Source: a virus | Lineage: Duplodnaviria; Heunggongvirae; Uroviricota; Caudoviricetes | Direction: 5' to 3' (one strand) | Length of the DNA: 27,657 nt | IMG/VR virus record: IMGVR_UViG_2703718778_000008 | Shown here: piece after piece, positions 1-27,657 of the stretch | Numbering within the stretch: position 1 is the first letter of the stretch | How the letters are laid out: each line of letters begins with the position of its first letter | Notes under the pieces: model-generated | What the model was told of the DNA's origin: nothing | Database searches by the model: none | What the model saw: the letters and a program-made list of their open reading frames with translations, nothing else | Program-made: the position numbers and the translations under genes

Positions 1-2
1 AA

Positions 3-164
3 CACAACGAAAAATATCTCGACCCTACAAATGACGAGGACAATATGAGCGACACAACGATCCTGCAAAACAGTACCCAAGTTAAAAAATATCCATCTAA
101 GGCATTGAATTTTATTTGTTTGTTAAATGCTTTGCCTACATATTGCCTTGCTTTGAGAATATAA
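3..164 (+). CDS. 3' end of an unidentified ORF open at the window start
   Basis: Frame is open from position 3 to TAA at 162-164 (ends ...LNALPTYCLALRI*); AT-rich; followed directly by a hairpin terminator. No recognisable motif. Confidence 0.2.
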   Translation, partial: HNEKYLDPTNDEDNMSDTTILQNSTQVKKYPSKALNFICLLNALPTYCLALRI

Positions 165-201
165 AAAGCCCGCAGTTTTTACGCTGCGGGCTTTATTTTT
201 T
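165..201. terminator. Rho-independent terminator, probably bidirectional
   Basis: Inverted repeat GCCCGCAG (168-175) / CTGCGGGC (184-191), flanked by an A-run upstream and TTTATTTTTT downstream; sits between the plus-strand ORF end and the minus-strand Hok-like ORF end. Confidence 0.7.
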
Positions 202-286
202 CTTTGTGACTTGCGTGTGAGGGTGCTACTTTCGGCCTTACCCTGACAACCGATTGACGGGGGATTACTCCCCCGTCGCGGTTTCC

Positions 287-427
287 TTACTGCTTACACT
301 GTAAGAGCGCCGCAAACTCCGCTCCCCAGATGTTCATCCGTATTTCACACAGCGAACCATGTAACATCCAGATGATGAGGATTGCCGTCACGCAGAACGT
401 GATGGCCATAAGCGATTTTTGCGACAT
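287..427 (-). CDS. Hok/Gef-family type I toxin-like small membrane protein (46 aa)
   Basis: Manual translation of the minus strand: MSQKSLMAITFCVTAILIIWMLHGSLCEIRMNIWGAEFAALLQCKQ. Hydrophobic N-terminal helix followed by SLCEIR and EFAA, matching the Hok signature (R1 Hok: ...[20 protein letters not shown]...). AGGAG 8 nt upstream of ATG. Absent from the ORF track because it is under 60 aa. Confidence 0.6.
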   Translation of the reverse strand: MSQKSLMAITFCVTAILIIWMLHGSLCEIRMNIWGAEFAALLQCKQ

Positions 428-560
428 AGCGCTTGCTCCTTTGTTGGAGAGGCGCTAACCTTCCACTTGTCTAGGGTAGGAATGGTTAGGGCCTCGGGTT
501 AAACAATATGTTTGACTCGGGGCCTTTCCACATCCGGCCTTCAGGTTTTCCTTCCAGCCG

Positions 561-863
561 TCAGCCGAAAGGCACCCGCGCGTAATGTACTGGTTTTAAA
601 GCCATACCGCAATCCTCCAGTTGTAGCGTTAACTGACTGCGTCCCTGATGGGATTTGCGCATTGTCTCCCGTGGAATATCTTTATCGTGGAAGATCAACT
701 GAGGCTGGCCAATAATTCTGTGCACACTTTCCATTGTTGAAAATGTGGCGCTGCACTCAAGGTTATTGCACTGATAGTATTTGTAGCGGATGGTGCCGGT
801 ATCATTGGCGGCTTTACTGGTACGGATCCGGGCAGATGCGCCGCAGAATGGACAATGAAACAT
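561..863 (-). CDS. ogr: Ogr/Delta-family zinc-finger late transcription activator
   Basis: MFHCPFCGASARIRTSKAANDTGTIRYKYYQCNNLECSATF... has the C-X2-C-X24-C-X4-C arrangement and strong resemblance to P2 Ogr. Start taken at the internal ATG at 863 (GGGGGT upstream), after the stop of D. Confidence 0.85.
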   Translation of the reverse strand: MFHCPFCGASARIRTSKAANDTGTIRYKYYQCNNLECSATFSTMESVHRIIGQPQLIFHDKDIPRETMRKSHQGRSQLTLQLEDCGMALKPVHYARVPFG

Positions 864-13580: not shown

Positions 13581-15626
13581 TTATGCGGCGTTGCTGTTAT
13601 TGATATCCACCGTCACATACTCAATCAGCACGGGGTAGGTGTCCTGGTTACTGGTGATATCCGTGATCAGCAGTTTGTCGTTATCCAGTCCTGCCGCCGG
13701 GCATTTCGCCAGATTAAAGGCCGCCTGGGTCTGACCGTTGATGACCGGTGTCACGCTGATGCTGTTATTTCCGGCAAACCGGAACACCACGTTGTGCCAG
13801 TTATGATTAAATGCCCCGAAGGTTCCCAGTTTTGCATTCTGTTGTTTGTGCTGCATCAGATTCAGGTTTGCGCTGTCGCTCTGGATGAAGAAGGCGGCCA
13901 GCATATCGTTTCCTGCGCTGCCTTCCAGAACAACGTTTTCAGGTAGCTGAGAAACCGGCCAGTGCAGAGCCATGGCGAAGCGGTTTTCTGCCAGCTGAAC
14001 ACCTTCCGGGATTTTGAAACGAAAGGCAATTTCCCCGCCTTTCTGAAGTAATTCAGCTGCTTTACTTGCAGGCACATCGTGGGCGATTTTCCAGGCTGTT
14101 TGTTGCCCCTGGACTTTTTCCACTCGCATGGCTTTACCGCTCTGAGCAGCAGAGTCATTTACGACGGAGGCTTTTCCATCTGCCCCTGTCCAGCCCTGTT
14201 CTTTCAGTTTCCCTTCCTGTGCGTCTGCGCGATAAGCGACGGCCGTTGTTCTTGCCGGTGATGACTGCGTACCTGCGCCCGGCTGAGGTGCAGGTGTGTA
14301 GGGCTGCGGGCTTTCCGTGGTGGTGCTGTCTGAACCGGCCGTGGCGGGAGGTACTGCGACCACGCTGAACGGTGCGGGTGCACCTTTCAGGAAGGCGACG
14401 GTCTTCCCGGCATGCATCAGGATCGCCGTTGCCAGGCGGTCAGAAATAATGCCGCGGCGGGCCCATGAACTGAAATGCGTGGCGCGATCTGAAGAGGTCC
14501 AGTTTCCGTTACTACGGGATGCAGCACCGTAATAACCGGCTTCTGCCAGGTCAGGATCTTCGGCAGGCAGGTTTGTTGGCGTGTTAGCACCTTTCTCATC
14601 GGTCATCAGGGGCACAAAATAAATTTTTTGCGCTTCTTTGTTCTGATATGCACCGTAAACCACCGGGTACTGAGAGGTATATTGTTGTTTCCAGATATAG
14701 GTGGTATCGCCGCAAATCCAGGGAACAAGTGATGCGTTGCCTCCGGTGCACTGTGCAGCATATGCGCTGAGATCGGCGCGGAACTGATTCACCATGTTCA
14801 GGAATAATTGCGGGTGCTGTGCGTATGTTGCTGATTTCAGATCAAACTCTCCCAGCATCCAGACCACGGATAACAGGACGTTTTTGGGGTTTTTATCCAG
14901 CGCGGCTTTTGTACGGGTAAGCAGATCGTTATACAGCGGTTTGCCGACGCCCCACAGGGATGATTCGGCCGTTGCTCCTGAAGATTCACTGAATGCCCCC
15001 TCAGCGCCGGAAGTAAGCGCTGACCCTCCACGACAGCAAGGTACCAGGAGGATCCCTGCATTTTTCGGGATAAACGCCAGTAATTTTTTGGCAATATGTA
15101 AACCCTGTCCGACGCAGCCATACTGACCTTTTGACAGATCGGCGTTCGGATGATTAAGGCTGCTCATATCCTGTACATCATGGAGACAGTGATCTGCCGG
15201 AATAATATCGTTATAGGTACATGCAGCGCCGCCCGGTGTTACCGTACTGCGACGCGCTAACTGTTTAATTCGTGGATCAGGACTGTCGAATGTATCGGGT
15301 AATGGCAGCCCCTCACCGTATGCCATGCCATTGGACTGACCAGCCAGTGGCACCACATAATAAAACTCTGGCTCAGTTGTGTGTCCAGTGTCGTATCCGT
15401 CGGTAGTGCCCGGTACGGGGTTTTCCTCGCCTTTTGGTACCGGAATGGCTGATGGCAGGTCTCTGTCAGTGACCAGTGCCTGCATCAGGTAAAATGGTGC
15501 TCCCGGCTCTGATGCTGAGACAGGTCCCCCAAGAAGTCCCCATCCTTCCCTGAGCATGGGCGCAAGTTTTTCGGCAAGTTCCTTGTTCGTCATTGCCGTC
15601 ACAAGCTGATAATGTTTCGGTACCAT
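13581..15626 (-). CDS. DUF1737 / sialate-O-acetylesterase (SASA, SGNH-like) domain protein, NanS-p-like, with a C-terminal extension
   Basis: N-terminal ...HYQLVTAMTNKELAEKLAPMLREGWGLLGGPV...YLMQALV (DUF1737-like), then ...YYVVPLAGQSNGMAYGEG... (the GQSN catalytic motif of SASA esterases). Start taken at ATG 15626 (GGAG upstream). Confidence 0.65.
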   Translation of the reverse strand: MVPKHYQLVTAMTNKELAEKLAPMLREGWGLLGGPVSASEPGAPFYLMQALVTDRDLPSAIPVPKGEENPVPGTTDGYDTGHTTEPEFYYVVPLAGQSNGMAYGEGLPLPDTFDSPDPRIKQLARRSTVTPGGAACTYNDIIPADHCLHDVQDMSSLNHPNADLSKGQYGCVGQGLHIAKKLLAFIPKNAGILLVPCCRGGSALTSGAEGAFSESSGATAESSLWGVGKPLYNDLLTRTKAALDKNPKNVLLSVVWMLGEFDLKSATYAQHPQLFLNMVNQFRADLSAYAAQCTGGNASLVPWICGDTTYIWKQQYTSQYPVVYGAYQNKEAQKIYFVPLMTDEKGANTPTNLPAEDPDLAEAGYYGAASRSNGNWTSSDRATHFSSWARRGIISDRLATAILMHAGKTVAFLKGAPAPFSVVAVPPATAGSDSTTTESPQPYTPAPQPGAGTQSSPARTTAVAYRADAQEGKLKEQGWTGADGKASVVNDSAAQSGKAMRVEKVQGQQTAWKIAHDVPASKAAELLQKGGEIAFRFKIPEGVQLAENRFAMALHWPVSQLPENVVLEGSAGNDMLAAFFIQSDSANLNLMQHKQQNAKLGTFGAFNHNWHNVVFRFAGNNSISVTPVINGQTQAAFNLAKCPAAGLDNDKLLITDITSNQDTYPVLIEYVTVDINNSNAA

Positions 15627-15636
15627 AGTGACTCCG

Positions 15637-15912
15637 TTATTTTTCATGAGTGTTCATTCGTGCTGTCCGCTGCCGCTCCAGCCCGGCAATGGCGGCTTTA
15701 TCGGCATTACAACTGTCCAGGGCATCTACCAGTCGGTCTCCCCAGTCAGCCACATCAGCCCATATCATGTGTTGCGGCAGCACCGGTACCGGCGTCTGTC
15801 TGGTCAGACTTTCCGGCACGCTCCCGCAAATGACGCCGGTTTTCAGCGGCGCTGGCGTGTTGTTGCAGGCTGTCAGCAACATCAGCAGGGGGAGAAGTGC
15901 GTGCGCACTCAT
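15637..15912 (-). CDS. lysC: o-spanin (Rz1/LysC-like outer-membrane lipoprotein), nested in and extending past lysB
   Basis: MSAHALLPLLMLLTACNN...: signal peptide with lipobox LTAC. Lies in a different frame overlapping the 3' part of lysB, as in the P2 lysB/lysC arrangement. Confidence 0.6.
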   Translation of the reverse strand: MSAHALLPLLMLLTACNNTPAPLKTGVICGSVPESLTRQTPVPVLPQHMIWADVADWGDRLVDALDSCNADKAAIAGLERQRTARMNTHEK

Positions 15913-24805: not shown

Positions 24806-25309
24806 ATGGCTATGGACTCAGTAACGATACAAATCATTAGCAATATGATAGTCCTGTTTGGTGTCATTGTTGCTATCTGTACAATTATCTATAACGTTCG
24901 TACGGCAAAAAAAACACAAACCGCTAATTTTTTATTTGAAAGTCGCCAGGATAAGGAATACCTGGAATCATTACATCTCCTCAGGAGAATTCATCGCTCA
25001 GGGAAATCGTTTCGTGCTTATGTTTTTCCTTGTGAAGGCGGGGCTATTACGGAAGAGGAGATGACCGAACGTCGCAAGTTTCAGTACATTCTTAACTTTT
25101 ACGAGAGAGTTGCAGTTAGTATCCGTGAAGGTATTTATGATGAAAGGATGATCAAACGAACGTCCTTTACAACGATTATTACAACTTATGATATTGCAGA
25201 ACCCCTGATTAAGGCTATCAGAGAAGATACTCAATCAAAAACAGCGTACCAGGAGTTTGAATGGCTGGTAAAACGATGGAAAGCTCGTCCTCTTGATAGG
25301 GATGTGTAG
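24806..25309 (+). CDS. Hypothetical membrane-anchored protein (167 aa), AT-rich accessory hotspot gene
   Basis: Markedly lower GC by eye than surrounding phage genes. N-terminal hydrophobic helix IQIISNMIVLFGVIVAICTIIY followed by a charged soluble domain; no recognisable catalytic motif. Confidence 0.6.
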   Translation: MAMDSVTIQIISNMIVLFGVIVAICTIIYNVRTAKKTQTANFLFESRQDKEYLESLHLLRRIHRSGKSFRAYVFPCEGGAITEEEMTERRKFQYILNFYERVAVSIREGIYDERMIKRTSFTTIITTYDIAEPLIKAIREDTQSKTAYQEFEWLVKRWKARPLDRDV

Positions 25310-25356: not shown

Positions 25357-25674
25357 TTATCGAGCCGTTCTTGCGCTCATGATGCTTTGCGCCAGCAACT
25401 GCCAGCCCTCTTTCTGTTGCCCGCGCTTGTCCTGATACCTGTTTACCTGCAAGTTTCCGTGCACCAGAATCAGATCGCCTTTTCTGTGTTTTGCCAGTTC
25501 TTCGTGCTGCTTCCCGAATGCAATAAGGTAAAGCCACATTGTGGTTGGCTGTTCTGCGCCATGGCAGGGTAGTGATACCGCCAGTTGTGCCGTTGTGACG
25601 TTGGTTCCTTTGGTTGTTCTCCTTGTGTTCGGGTCTGCTGCCAGTCGTCCCTCTGTTGCAACCTGTGTTGGCAT
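25357..25674 (-). CDS. Short SSB-like OB-fold protein (105 aa)
   Basis: ...MWLYLIAFGKQHEELAKHRKGDLILVHGNLQVNRYQDKRGQQKEGWQ... parallels the E. coli SSB core (...[42 protein letters not shown]...); lacks the acidic C-terminal tail. GGGAGA upstream of ATG. Confidence 0.5.
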   Translation of the reverse strand: MPTQVATEGRLAADPNTRRTTKGTNVTTAQLAVSLPCHGAEQPTTMWLYLIAFGKQHEELAKHRKGDLILVHGNLQVNRYQDKRGQQKEGWQLLAQSIMSARTAR

Positions 25675-25706: not shown

Positions 25707-26045
25707 TTAGATGGCTGGCAGATCTCCGCCAGCGCCGTAGATAAACAGAATTCGCTTCATGATTTCGCTGCGCTTACAGGCTTCGATGACTGATTTTTCC
25801 TGTTGCCATTCTGCCCGTTGCGCCAGCTCCAGTCGTTCCTTTTCCGTTAGCTTCCGGTAATGCGTTATCTTGTCCGTGTACCCGTCCACAACCAGCAGCC
25901 CTTCGCGTACCATCTTCCCGGCGGCCTGATTAATGATGGTCCTTTTCACGCCCAGTTTTTCAACCAGCTCTGGTGCGCTGAAGCGTGCGTGCGTTTCCAG
26001 GTAGCGTAAAATGATTACCTTTCCGGTCATTCTGGGTGTCTTCAT
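25707..26045 (-). CDS. Putative winged-helix DNA-binding protein (about 112 aa)
   Basis: ...ILRYLETHARFSAPELVEKLGVKRTIINQAAGKMVREGLLVV... looks like a wHTH. Start set at the internal ATG that overlaps the upstream stop (ATGA). Confidence 0.4.
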   Translation of the reverse strand: MKTPRMTGKVIILRYLETHARFSAPELVEKLGVKRTIINQAAGKMVREGLLVVDGYTDKITHYRKLTEKERLELAQRAEWQQEKSVIEACKRSEIMKRILFIYGAGGDLPAI

Positions 26046-26212
26046 TTGGCGGCTCCTTCGTTGTTCCGGCGTTCGCGGAGTTCGGTCAGTGCTGCCAGTA
26101 AATTTTCCCACCATGTTTCTTCCACAACCGGATTTCGTCGTGAAAGCAGCTGCTGCGCCGACTCAATCATTTTCGTAAGCTCTTTGTCGCTGATCCTCCT
26201 GATGTCGTTCAT
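26042..26212 (-). CDS. Small hypothetical protein (56 aa)
   Basis: Internal ATG preceded by AAGGAG 7 nt upstream: MNDIRRISDKELTKMIESAQQLL... Confidence 0.4.
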   Translation of the reverse strand: MNDIRRISDKELTKMIESAQQLLSRRNPVVEETWWENLLAALTELRERRNNEGAAK

Positions 26213-26260
26213 GGTGTGCTCCTTCGGTTTGCTGTTTCTGGTCATGTTCATGGTCTTTTG

Positions 26261-26665
26261 TTACCTGCGTGATTGCCTGCTGGCGGCCGAATGCACATAG
26301 CGGACAATTGCCGCTTTTCGGTTAACGACGGCCAGCGTTCTTGCCAGTTCTTCGTTGAGTTTTCTGGTCTGTTTTTCGTGGTATGCCTGCATGATTTTTC
26401 CTACGGGAGTCAGTGGTTCAGGCTCTGATATGGCGCGACGAGGGCGCACGGCAACGATGAATGCGCTTCTGTCGGTGTTGATTCTTGCAGTCAGGATGTC
26501 GGTCATAACGGTGTCTGTGCTGCGATCGGGACTGGCGATCGTGATTTCCAGTTCGTCGCCTGGCTGCGGTCGAACACTGACGCCGCTCAGTGTCAGTGCC
26601 GGAATGCGTGCGTTCATGATGGTGCTGAAATCATGGCGCTGGAGTACGCAATGGAATCGTGTCAT
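26261..26665 (-). CDS. Hypothetical protein (134 aa) translationally coupled to gene A
   Basis: ATG overlaps the stop of A (ATGA) with GGAGG upstream; no motif recognised. Occupies the position of P2 orf91. Confidence 0.5.
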   Translation of the reverse strand: MTRFHCVLQRHDFSTIMNARIPALTLSGVSVRPQPGDELEITIASPDRSTDTVMTDILTARINTDRSAFIVAVRPRRAISEPEPLTPVGKIMQAYHEKQTRKLNEELARTLAVVNRKAAIVRYVHSAASRQSRR

Positions 26666-27657
26666 GGGTTAACCTCCGGTTGATCTGCTGCCACCAGGCT
26701 TCGTGATTTTTCATCCCAGTGCACAATCCGCCCGTCAGGCAGGCGAACGCGTGCACCTCTGTGTACGGAAAGTGCTGCGCCACTGTGTAGCTCCTCGCCC
26801 GTCGTGCTCAGTGCCGACTTGATTACGGTGGTGGTGACGTCAGTCAGCGGCAATGCTGTACGCACATGTATGACGTCATCGGGCGTGGTGGGGCCGCCGG
26901 TTTTCACGGTTTTTGTGTCAGATGGCGCATCTTTCAGCTGCCTGGTGAGTTGTTTTCTCTCTGTGGGGGTCAGTGACCTTAACCATTCGCTCAAATCACC
27001 TTCCGGGATGGTCAGTTTTTGTTCTTTCCTGGTTTCCGGTGGTGGGGTTTTACCCTCTCCGGTGTCTGTTTTTTCATCATGGGGACAGTTATTGCCACGA
27101 GTCCAAGGTGCGGCGAAGCCGCCCCCAACGTCAAAATCCTCGTCCGTGCTGTTGTCGGCTTTCGCTTCTTTTCTGACCAGTTTCCACTCGTCCGGATGGG
27201 TGCAGATGGTGTAGCGCTCGCCGAGCGACGGGGCACAAATTCCGTAGATGCGCTGCGGGAATTCGCCGTAGTCGTTGGCCTCATCTGCGGTTTCGTATGC
27301 GGTGCGGATCAGGTACAGGTTGCGCGGAATGAGCACGCCGCCCTGACGGTTGATGTAGGTGGCAAAACACCCCACGTCAGCGGCGGCCAGAATGGCGTCA
27401 ATATGGTCATGGTCCAGGCGCTTCGGTGATGCGGGGTTACGCTCCATTTGTCCGGCAAGGCGGCGGAGTTCACGCCATACCTGGCGGGGCGGGATACCGA
27501 AGAACTGGAACTGCCGGATGCGGTGGAGACTCGCCCAGGCAATGGCGTTTTCCACGGTTTCCGCCATGGTTTTTCCCGCTTCTTTATCGGCGTAAGGTTT
27601 GCCGGTTTTCGGGTCATTGTCGTGAAAGGTGCTGGCGTCCAGGTTCTTGCCAATATA
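26662..27657 (-). CDS. A: Replication initiation protein A (rolling-circle endonuclease), 3' portion only; 5' end lies beyond the window
   Basis: The minus-strand frame is open from the window edge (no stop in 27568-27657) and continues through the track ORF 26662-27567. Assignment rests mainly on synteny and size; no HUH or tyrosine motif falls in this part. Confidence 0.55.
   Translation of the reverse strand, partial: YIGKNLDASTFHDNDPKTGKPYADKEAGKTMAETVENAIAWASLHRIRQFQFFGIPPRQVWRELRRLAGQMERNPASPKRLDHDHIDAILAAADVGCFATYINRQGGVLIPRNLYLIRTAYETADEANDYGEFPQRIYGICAPSLGERYTICTHPDEWKLVRKEAKADNSTDEDFDVGGGFAAPWTRGNNCPHDEKTDTGEGKTPPPETRKEQKLTIPEGDLSEWLRSLTPTERKQLTRQLKDAPSDTKTVKTGGPTTPDDVIHVRTALPLTDVTTTVIKSALSTTGEELHSGAALSVHRGARVRLPDGRIVHWDEKSRSLVAADQPEVNP

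Follow-up and report, generated by a model that had tools for sequence, protein, structure and literature searches.

A probable hok/sok module beside ogr in a P2-like prophage, from a Hok clade without a conserved mok leader open reading frame

Results

The window analyzed here is the whole of a 27,657-nucleotide (nt) stretch of viral DNA (Caudoviricetes; IMG/VR record IMGVR_UViG_2703718778_000008), and close to one of its ends lies a cassette that we read as a member of hok/sok, a textbook type I toxin-antitoxin system. The minus strand of this region carries ogr (561..863), which encodes a late-gene activator of 100 amino acids (aa; Pfam Ogr_Delta, E 7e-16; NCBIfam PRK09678), and then, with a gap of 133 nt between the ogr stop codon and the next ATG, a hok coding sequence (287..427) of 46 codons plus stop, ATG to TAA, for a Hok/Gef family toxin of cluster 72, with the translation MSQKSLMAITFCVTAILIIWMLHGSLCEIRMNIWGAEFAALLQCKQ. 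The sequence AAGGAG, which we read as the hok Shine-Dalgarno (SD) element, lies 8 nt before the ATG (441-436, minus strand), and its GGAG is kept in 12 of 12 homologues in our structure alignment, whose cassette copies come from E. coli chromosomes, phage Chuche, a Shiga toxin (Stx) phage, and plasmids of Salmonella, E. marmotae, and E. coli. An initial annotation, made from the sequence alone, had placed a 46-codon open reading frame (ORF) with a good ribosome-binding site at this position, about 130 nt downstream of ogr on the same strand, at the edge of a prophage and beside a strong bidirectional terminator. The last two of these statements also held, since the terminator scan found a hairpin at 165-194 on both strands and prophage-free E. 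coli genomes match the window only from position 1 to 79-84, in sequence annotated as prpC.

The Hok/Gef signature that had been seen in the ORF was recovered by profile searches as well as by alignment. Pfam HOK_GEF (PF01848) matched the peptide with 28.2 bits (E 1.4e-6), above its gathering cutoff of 22 bits, with aa 7-44 aligned to profile positions 5-42 of 42, and PHROG 251 ("MokW-like host killing," category moron) matched it over its full length (E 4.3e-21). Hydropathy is high over aa 4-22, SLCEIR occupies aa 25-30, and EFAA occupies aa 37-40. When the peptide was aligned to Hok of plasmid R1, it was found to have 7 of the 7 family-conserved residues (M1, C12, T14, L26, C27, E28, and E37), the counterparts of M1, C16, T18, L30, C31, E32, and E41 in R1 numbering, which are kept in more than 80% of Hok peptides (bioRxiv 10.1101/2025.08.07.668861); an ungapped alignment of the two peptides gives 35% identity over 31 residues. 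The ratio of nonsynonymous to synonymous substitution rates (dN/dS) of hok among homologues is 0.25-0.5. No PADLOC defense model matched the peptide.

We also asked which named Hok protein this one resembles most. The top-scoring NCBIfam model was HokA (NF007290; 30.4 bits, E 3e-7), and HokA of E. coli K-12 (hokA/sokA) shares an xQK N terminus, a W-M motif, SLCE, and AAFL-C-K with the window peptide. We rejected HokA orthology, as the score is far under the equivalog cutoff of 89 bits for that model; in the Hok catalogue described below, HokA belongs to cluster 93, not 72. Orthology to HokW, the toxin of the hokW-sokW system of Stx2 prophage Sp5, was rejected as well. HokW, a 51-aa protein (MKQQKAM...YESEK, as read from primers) of a lambdoid phage host, falls in a different clade, cluster 35, together with HokD, and has 29% identity to the window peptide over 35 residues. 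In P88-like phages the hok gene next to ogr is annotated "MokW-like host killing," but since Stx phages carry a separate cluster-72 copy (locus L002), "MokW-like" is a family label and does not denote orthology.

The peptide and the cassette are already annotated and catalogued, and the locus is an ordinary member of a textbook family. The initial annotation had called the ORF unannotated, which is true of the ORF track that accompanied the sequence but not of public databases: the identical protein is a "Hok/Gef family protein" at NCBI (WP_062896806.1), where it occurs on 177 contigs, and the NCBI Prokaryotic Genome Annotation Pipeline (PGAP) annotates an identical hok beside the same 303-nt ogr ORF in E. 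coli JNEC-KY176, in a prophage by prpB with 96.7% nucleotide identity. A catalogue by Escalera-Maurer et al. of 44,248 Hok homologues, which are enriched in prophages, holds this peptide type as its abundant cluster 72 (bioRxiv 10.1101/2025.08.07.668861). Catalogue entry 1599 is 1 residue away from the window peptide, and member 72_1621, of P88/Chuche type, differs at 4 of 46 aa (91% identical). Cluster-72 members such as 72_1621 and 72_1589 (the Stx-phage type) share with the window the 46-aa pattern MSQKSL...LHGSLCE.R...WGAEFAA.LQCKQ and the same cassette RNA, and we found no difference of substance between them and the window, whose allele has L41 instead of F41. Both of these members were in a toxicity test set of 45 homologues, and neither is among the three named as non-toxic, which puts the 91%-identical 72_1621 among those toxic on expression (Table S2 in bioRxiv 10.1101/2025.08.07.668861).

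The possibility that the ORF is a chance open frame whose likeness to Hok is coincidental draws on its 46-codon length and on the fact that short hydrophobic ORFs are common by chance. We regard it as close to negligible, as the Pfam match lies above a curated cutoff, PHROG 251 matches too, hundreds of genomes have an identical or nearly identical protein annotated, the RNA architecture around the ORF is conserved, and close relatives are toxic according to the test set of that catalogue (bioRxiv 10.1101/2025.08.07.668861). Judged by its sequence, the 46-aa ORF is a genuine gene for a Hok-family membrane toxin, and the exact allele in the window (L41) is predicted to be toxic.

The unit that recurs with this gene is larger than the ORF. 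We found the cassette in 1,667 of 5,426 complete E. coli genomes, with as many as 8 places in a single genome; Stx phages and plasmids carry it too. The Stx-phage matches cover exactly window positions 221-597, and across contexts the similarity starts at the -35/-10 elements of a putative promoter (TTGC...TA-ATT) and ends right after GGCACCC. The homology thus runs from the promoter to the fbi element at the 3' end of the predicted transcript, and what moves is therefore the transcript together with its promoter. By serS in E. coli strain Bongo (locus L004, 3058-4607), three tandem hok cassettes of this family with three different Hok peptides lie within 1.5 kb. On the Salmonella enterica IncHI2 plasmid pS2122_1 (locus L005), a large resistance plasmid, an ogr-plus-hok fragment of a P88-like phage lies by IS26, an example of a plasmid capturing a phage copy.

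From these homology limits we predict a full-length hok mRNA of 357 nt (221..577, minus strand) that coincides with the mobile cassette and would be transcribed from a putative promoter within the 3' end of ogr (584..612, minus strand; TTGCGG at 612-607, N17, TACATT at 589-584), of which TTGC and TA-ATT recur in front of every cassette copy compared. Folding of this RNA (577 to 205) gave a minimum free energy of -160.8 kcal/mol with z = -6.5. On the alignment of 12 copies, the full-length structure has 90.4% of cells paired, compared with 39 to 43% when the partners are slid; 19 pairs changed on both sides, and the observed covariation score was reached by no shuffle. The initial annotation had described a compact leader region with a stem-loop. 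Hairpins and a long-range pairing were found; the leader upstream of the hok ATG is about 150 nt long and begins within ogr and so is not the 133-nt gap.

The elements of the fold correspond to those of the tac/fbi/ucb/dcb model for R1 hok mRNA (PMC9841398). The tac element (mRNA nt 1-15, GGGUGCCUUUCGGCU; 563..577, minus strand) is invariant in 12 of 12 homologues and pairs in the full-length fold with fbi (mRNA nt 341-357, GGCCGAAAGUAGCACCC; 221..237, minus strand), giving a helix of 15 pairs (helix 1) with 96.5% of cells paired. Ten of the tac/fbi pairs are invariant and four have changes on a single side, so the support for this helix is conservation rather than covariation. The hok SD and start codon are sequestered in a hairpin (427..457, minus strand; helix 7) with 11 pairs and 96.2% of cells paired. 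Upstream of the SD lies a dcb/anti-SD segment (GGUUAGCGCCUCUCC; 446..460, minus strand) with two possible partners, the hok SD region or GAGGCCCUAACC (495-484), and within it AGGTTAGCGCCTC is invariant. A hairpin of 18 bp at 488..525 is shared by both strands, as a ucb/GAGG hairpin in the hok mRNA and as a terminator hairpin of Sok on the plus strand. Beyond the coding sequence, a 3' stem-loop of the mature mRNA (247..283, minus strand; helices 14 and 15), the presumed stop for 3' exonuclease trimming, is 98 to 100% paired and has 4 pairs with compensatory changes; its core, 255-278, was also picked up by the terminator scan.

When the 3' end was removed in silico, other pairings appeared. In the RNAalifold consensus and in the fold of nt 1-331, tac pairs with GGAAAGGCCCC (tac/ucb) and GAGGCCCUAACC pairs with GGUUAGCGCCUC (GAGG/dcb). 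The 3'-truncated hok mRNA is therefore predicted to take the alternative fold of the R1 model.

Rfam at its gathering threshold found nothing in the whole window, so the RNA part of the cassette was missed, and a tRNA scan of the whole window found none. Below that threshold, RF01794 ("sok") aligns along its full model (1-157) to minus-strand positions 577-417 (E 2.7e-8). The consensus of RF01794 starts with GGGUGCUUGAG and finishes in AUG; since it thus extends from tac to the start codon, it represents the sense-strand leader of hok and not Sok itself.

The strand opposite the leader contains a putative Sok promoter (433..461, plus strand; TTGCTC at 433-438, N17, TAACCT at 456-461), placed by conservation and by the position of its R100 counterpart, TTGCGC-N17-TATCCT, with which it agrees in place and spacing relative to the leader. 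The complement of its -10 element, AGGTTA, is invariant, and the -35 element is conserved. It is predicted to produce a Sok antisense RNA of about 63 nt (468..530, plus strand) complementary to hok mRNA nt 48-110. The predicted Sok fold (-32.4 kcal/mol, z = -5.3) consists of a free 5' tail of 11 nt, a short stem with imperfect pairing, and the 488-525 hairpin, which contains the stem-loop first placed at about 489-523 and has the same position as the R100 Sok hairpin. The 5' tail is complementary to a loop exposed by truncated hok mRNA. Of the antisense control that the initial annotation had anticipated, then, a Sok-like fold and an R100-positioned promoter with an invariant -10 element were found, but the promoter falls below the threshold of the promoter scan.

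In R1, mutations in the start codon of the leader ORF mok abolish Hok synthesis, and mok translation is required (PMC9841398). R100 mok has 70 codons from +116, begins 7 nt after GAGG, and overlaps hok; the window has CAU at that place. We searched the three frames upstream of hok in the window and the 12 homologues and then in 63 distinct cassette sequences from viral contigs and other loci. In 36 of the 63 no ORF with an ATG, GTG, or TTG start reaches the hok SD or start codon, and the hok ORF is intact in all 63. Where a cassette does have such an ORF, its start varies (AUG at +17, AUG at +45, GUG at +47, or UUG at about +102). We also evaluated and rejected three candidate mok starts. The AUG at mRNA +45, although conserved, is located within the tac stem, and its ORF stops after 1, 8, 15, 19, 24, or 40 codons; neither the mini-ORF GUG-GAA-GGU-UAG nor an AUU codon 8 nt after GAGG is conserved. 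In the variable target-loop region (mRNA about 95-112), stop codons often occur in all frames. The cluster-72 Hok clade has no mok leader ORF that is conserved.

Several results weigh against reading the locus as a working hok/sok module. No ORF that starts with ATG, GTG, or TTG reaches the hok SD or start codon in any of the three frames in the window. The predicted opening of the SD on truncation is small, though its direction is consistent in 12 of 12 homologues: the mean probability that the hok GGAG is unpaired is 0.01 in full-length RNA, 0.13 in truncated RNA, and 0.01 when the Sok target is held single-stranded. With an effect of this size (0.01 to 0.13), we rejected a direct SD-unmasking switch as an established mechanism and keep it only as a hypothesis. 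The hok and Sok promoters are weak relative to consensus and neither was flagged by a consensus promoter scan, so the promoters and transcript ends are to be taken as predictions. In addition, the U tract of the Sok terminator is only short, and the RF01794 score of 44.3 bits is below the gathering score of 59.

The first two of these results would also fit a cassette that is structurally intact but translationally silent, a decaying passenger in which the SD hairpin, without mok, never opens and which, like the hok loci of E. coli K-12 that insertion sequences have inactivated, no longer kills: the window has no canonical-start ORF to the hok SD, mok start-codon mutations stop Hok synthesis in R1 (PMC9841398), and the SD is predicted to be mostly paired even in the truncated RNA. 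We consider this explanation unlikely. The 36 of 63 cassettes that lack such an ORF have kept hok intact like all the others, dN/dS is 0.25-0.5, all RNA elements are conserved with compensatory changes present, and phages, plasmids, and chromosomes have all acquired the cassette, as many as 8 copies of it in one genome, a pattern that fits selection for an expressed toxin and not decay. Weighing these points together, we hold with high confidence that the locus is a genuine hok/sok module.

Judged by the genes and junctions around it, the cassette is a moron in a P2-like (P88/Xuanwuvirus-type) prophage in prpC, with ogr on one side and the attachment-site end of the prophage on the other. Positions 1..82 (plus strand) are host DNA, comprising the prpB-prpC spacer and the first ~13 prpC codons, and the junction with the prophage falls at about 80-84, so the cassette begins about 140 nt inside the prophage end. 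The prpC gene (2-methylcitrate synthase) has its ATG at 45 and about 13 native codons before phage DNA begins, so that a P2-like prophage sits inside its 5' end. Of the 5,426 complete E. coli genomes, only 2 share this junction; the JNEC-KY176 prophage also lies directly after prpB.

P88-like P2 phages (P88, Chuche, 500465-2, and Xuanwuvirus P884B11) have the same gene order as the window, D - ogr - hok - terminator, with 83% nucleotide identity over ogr plus hok, and share the terminator downstream. The bidirectional terminator (165..194, both strands) is phage DNA common to the P88-like phages, and homology to Chuche and P88 begins at window position 165. Past it the two differ: Chuche has com and a DNA methyltransferase gene, whereas the window has the prophage end and prpC. 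They differ also in ogr, which in P88-like phages encodes 86 aa and ends before the hok transcript but in the window reads 17 nt into the hok mRNA. The hok promoter lies within the last 17 codons of the window ogr, as do the first 17 nt of the hok mRNA, and the ogr stop codon TGA (563-561) falls within tac. In Chuche and in the Salmonella plasmid copy, ogr is 86 aa and ends before the cassette, which suggests that the C-terminal tail of the window Ogr arose as a by-product when the cassette inserted. Only aa 1-59 of the window Ogr match the P2 Ogr profile, which has a length of 72 aa.

The terminator scan found none between ogr and hok, so ogr transcripts should read through the cassette to 194-165. 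On the plus strand, the core of the hok 3' hairpin (255-278) is followed by a T-rich run and was scored as a terminator for transcripts arriving from the prpC side, which could shield the cassette from antisense read-through.

A P2-like late region (D, sheath, tube, tape measure, terminase, portal, and gpL) makes up the remainder of the window, together with a few additional genes. A 688-aa ORF (13581-15647, minus strand) with DUF1737, a SASA sialate-O-acetylesterase domain, and DUF6645 is unexpected cargo for a P2-like prophage; it presumably resembles the NanS-p esterases of Stx prophages. Beyond the portal and terminase genes are a DUF4760 protein (24806-25309, plus strand) and a short protein of the single-stranded DNA-binding (SSB) family (25357-25674, minus strand). 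The ORFs at 25707-27567 had no Pfam match, and one of them had a weak PADLOC winged-helix match.

Discussion

The model that we propose follows the R1 scheme in most of its steps. The hok mRNA of about 357 nt would come from a weak promoter in the 3' end of ogr, probably with a contribution from transcripts that read through from ogr. In the full-length RNA, tac would be paired with fbi, and the hok SD and AUG would be held in a local hairpin; this closed fold would leave the RNA stable, untranslatable, and inaccessible to Sok. Slow 3' trimming to the GC-rich hairpin (247-283) would take off fbi, and the trimmed RNA would refold, tac with ucb and GAGGCCCUAACC with dcb, exposing the loop complementary to the 11-nt tail of Sok. 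Short-lived Sok of about 63 nt, made constitutively from the plus strand (468-530), would pair with the refolded mRNA, and the duplex would be destroyed. RNase III cleaves the duplex in the R1 and hokW systems, and 3' exonucleolytic maturation is known from R1 (PMC9841398, PMC8621323). If the supply of Sok stopped or were outrun, Hok would be translated, and the peptide, a single helix in the inner membrane, would depolarize or lyse the cell. For the window cassette, we infer the transcript ends, the promoters, the processing, and the action of RNase III.

Likeness to hok/mok/sok (parB) of R1 and R100 extends over most of the locus and includes SLCEIR, the tac/fbi helix, the GAGG-bearing ucb hairpin, dcb, and the 3' hairpin, as well as a putative antisense Sok promoter with the same -10 position and a 17-nt spacer and a predicted Sok made of a 5' tail plus a hairpin. 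The two differ in leader length (150 nt in the window and 173 nt in R1/R100), in peptide length (46 and 52 aa), and in setting, the R1/R100 locus being a plasmid stability locus and the window locus a prophage moron.

The step at which the R1 scheme is hardest to transfer is translation. With no mok ORF, Hok translation must be gated otherwise, most simply by the dcb/anti-SD switch. It is conceivable, though we put it forward as tentative, that in the cluster-72 clade Sok controls hok without a mok leader peptide and that gating is purely by RNA refolding. In such a mechanism dcb would either mask the hok SD or be held away from it by the GAGG segment, and Sok bound to nt 48-110 would free dcb to re-mask the SD, besides triggering decay.

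What the module does for the prophage is a separate question, and any particular role (addiction, lysis help via ogr read-through, or abortive infection) carries much lower confidence than the identity of the module. By analogy with hokW-sokW, the role may be prophage stabilization by addiction and/or help with lysis after induction. Plasmid R1 hok/sok is also reported to act as an abortive-infection defense against phage T4. The hokW-sokW system of Stx2 prophage Sp5 in E. coli O157:H7 Sakai is toxic and is neutralized by its small RNA in an RNase III- and Hfq-dependent manner; its deletion halves the release of Sp5, and HokW is made after mitomycin C treatment (PMC8621323).

A functional module whose selected role is not addiction but help with lysis or release after induction, or abortive infection, is therefore a possibility to which we give real but less than even weight. 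Besides the Sp5 results (PMC8621323), it draws on the position of hok directly downstream of ogr without a terminator, where hok mRNA could come to exceed Sok through late or ogr transcription, on the finding that a P2-like Salmonella prophage transcribed ogr under every condition tested (PMC7067206), and on the classification of PHROG 251 as a moron. Set against this, HokW is of a different clade (29% identity over 35 residues), the window peptide lacks a PADLOC match, and hok genes are not enriched near defense systems (bioRxiv 10.1101/2025.08.07.668861). This alternative concerns the role and not the mechanism and is compatible with the model of antisense control set out above.

A literature search for a described P2-like ogr-hok module found no dedicated study. 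For annotation, ORFs below the length cutoff that lie beside ogr in P2-like prophages should be called hok. Standard Rfam annotation overlooks the cluster-72 clade, RF01794 scoring below its gathering score. If Hok synthesis in this clade is gated by RNA refolding, nature would have supplied a version of the textbook hok/sok mechanism that does not depend on mok. The lack of conservation of mok in so abundant a clade offers a way to find out whether hok/sok systems need coupling to mok in general or whether this need is peculiar to the R1 group.

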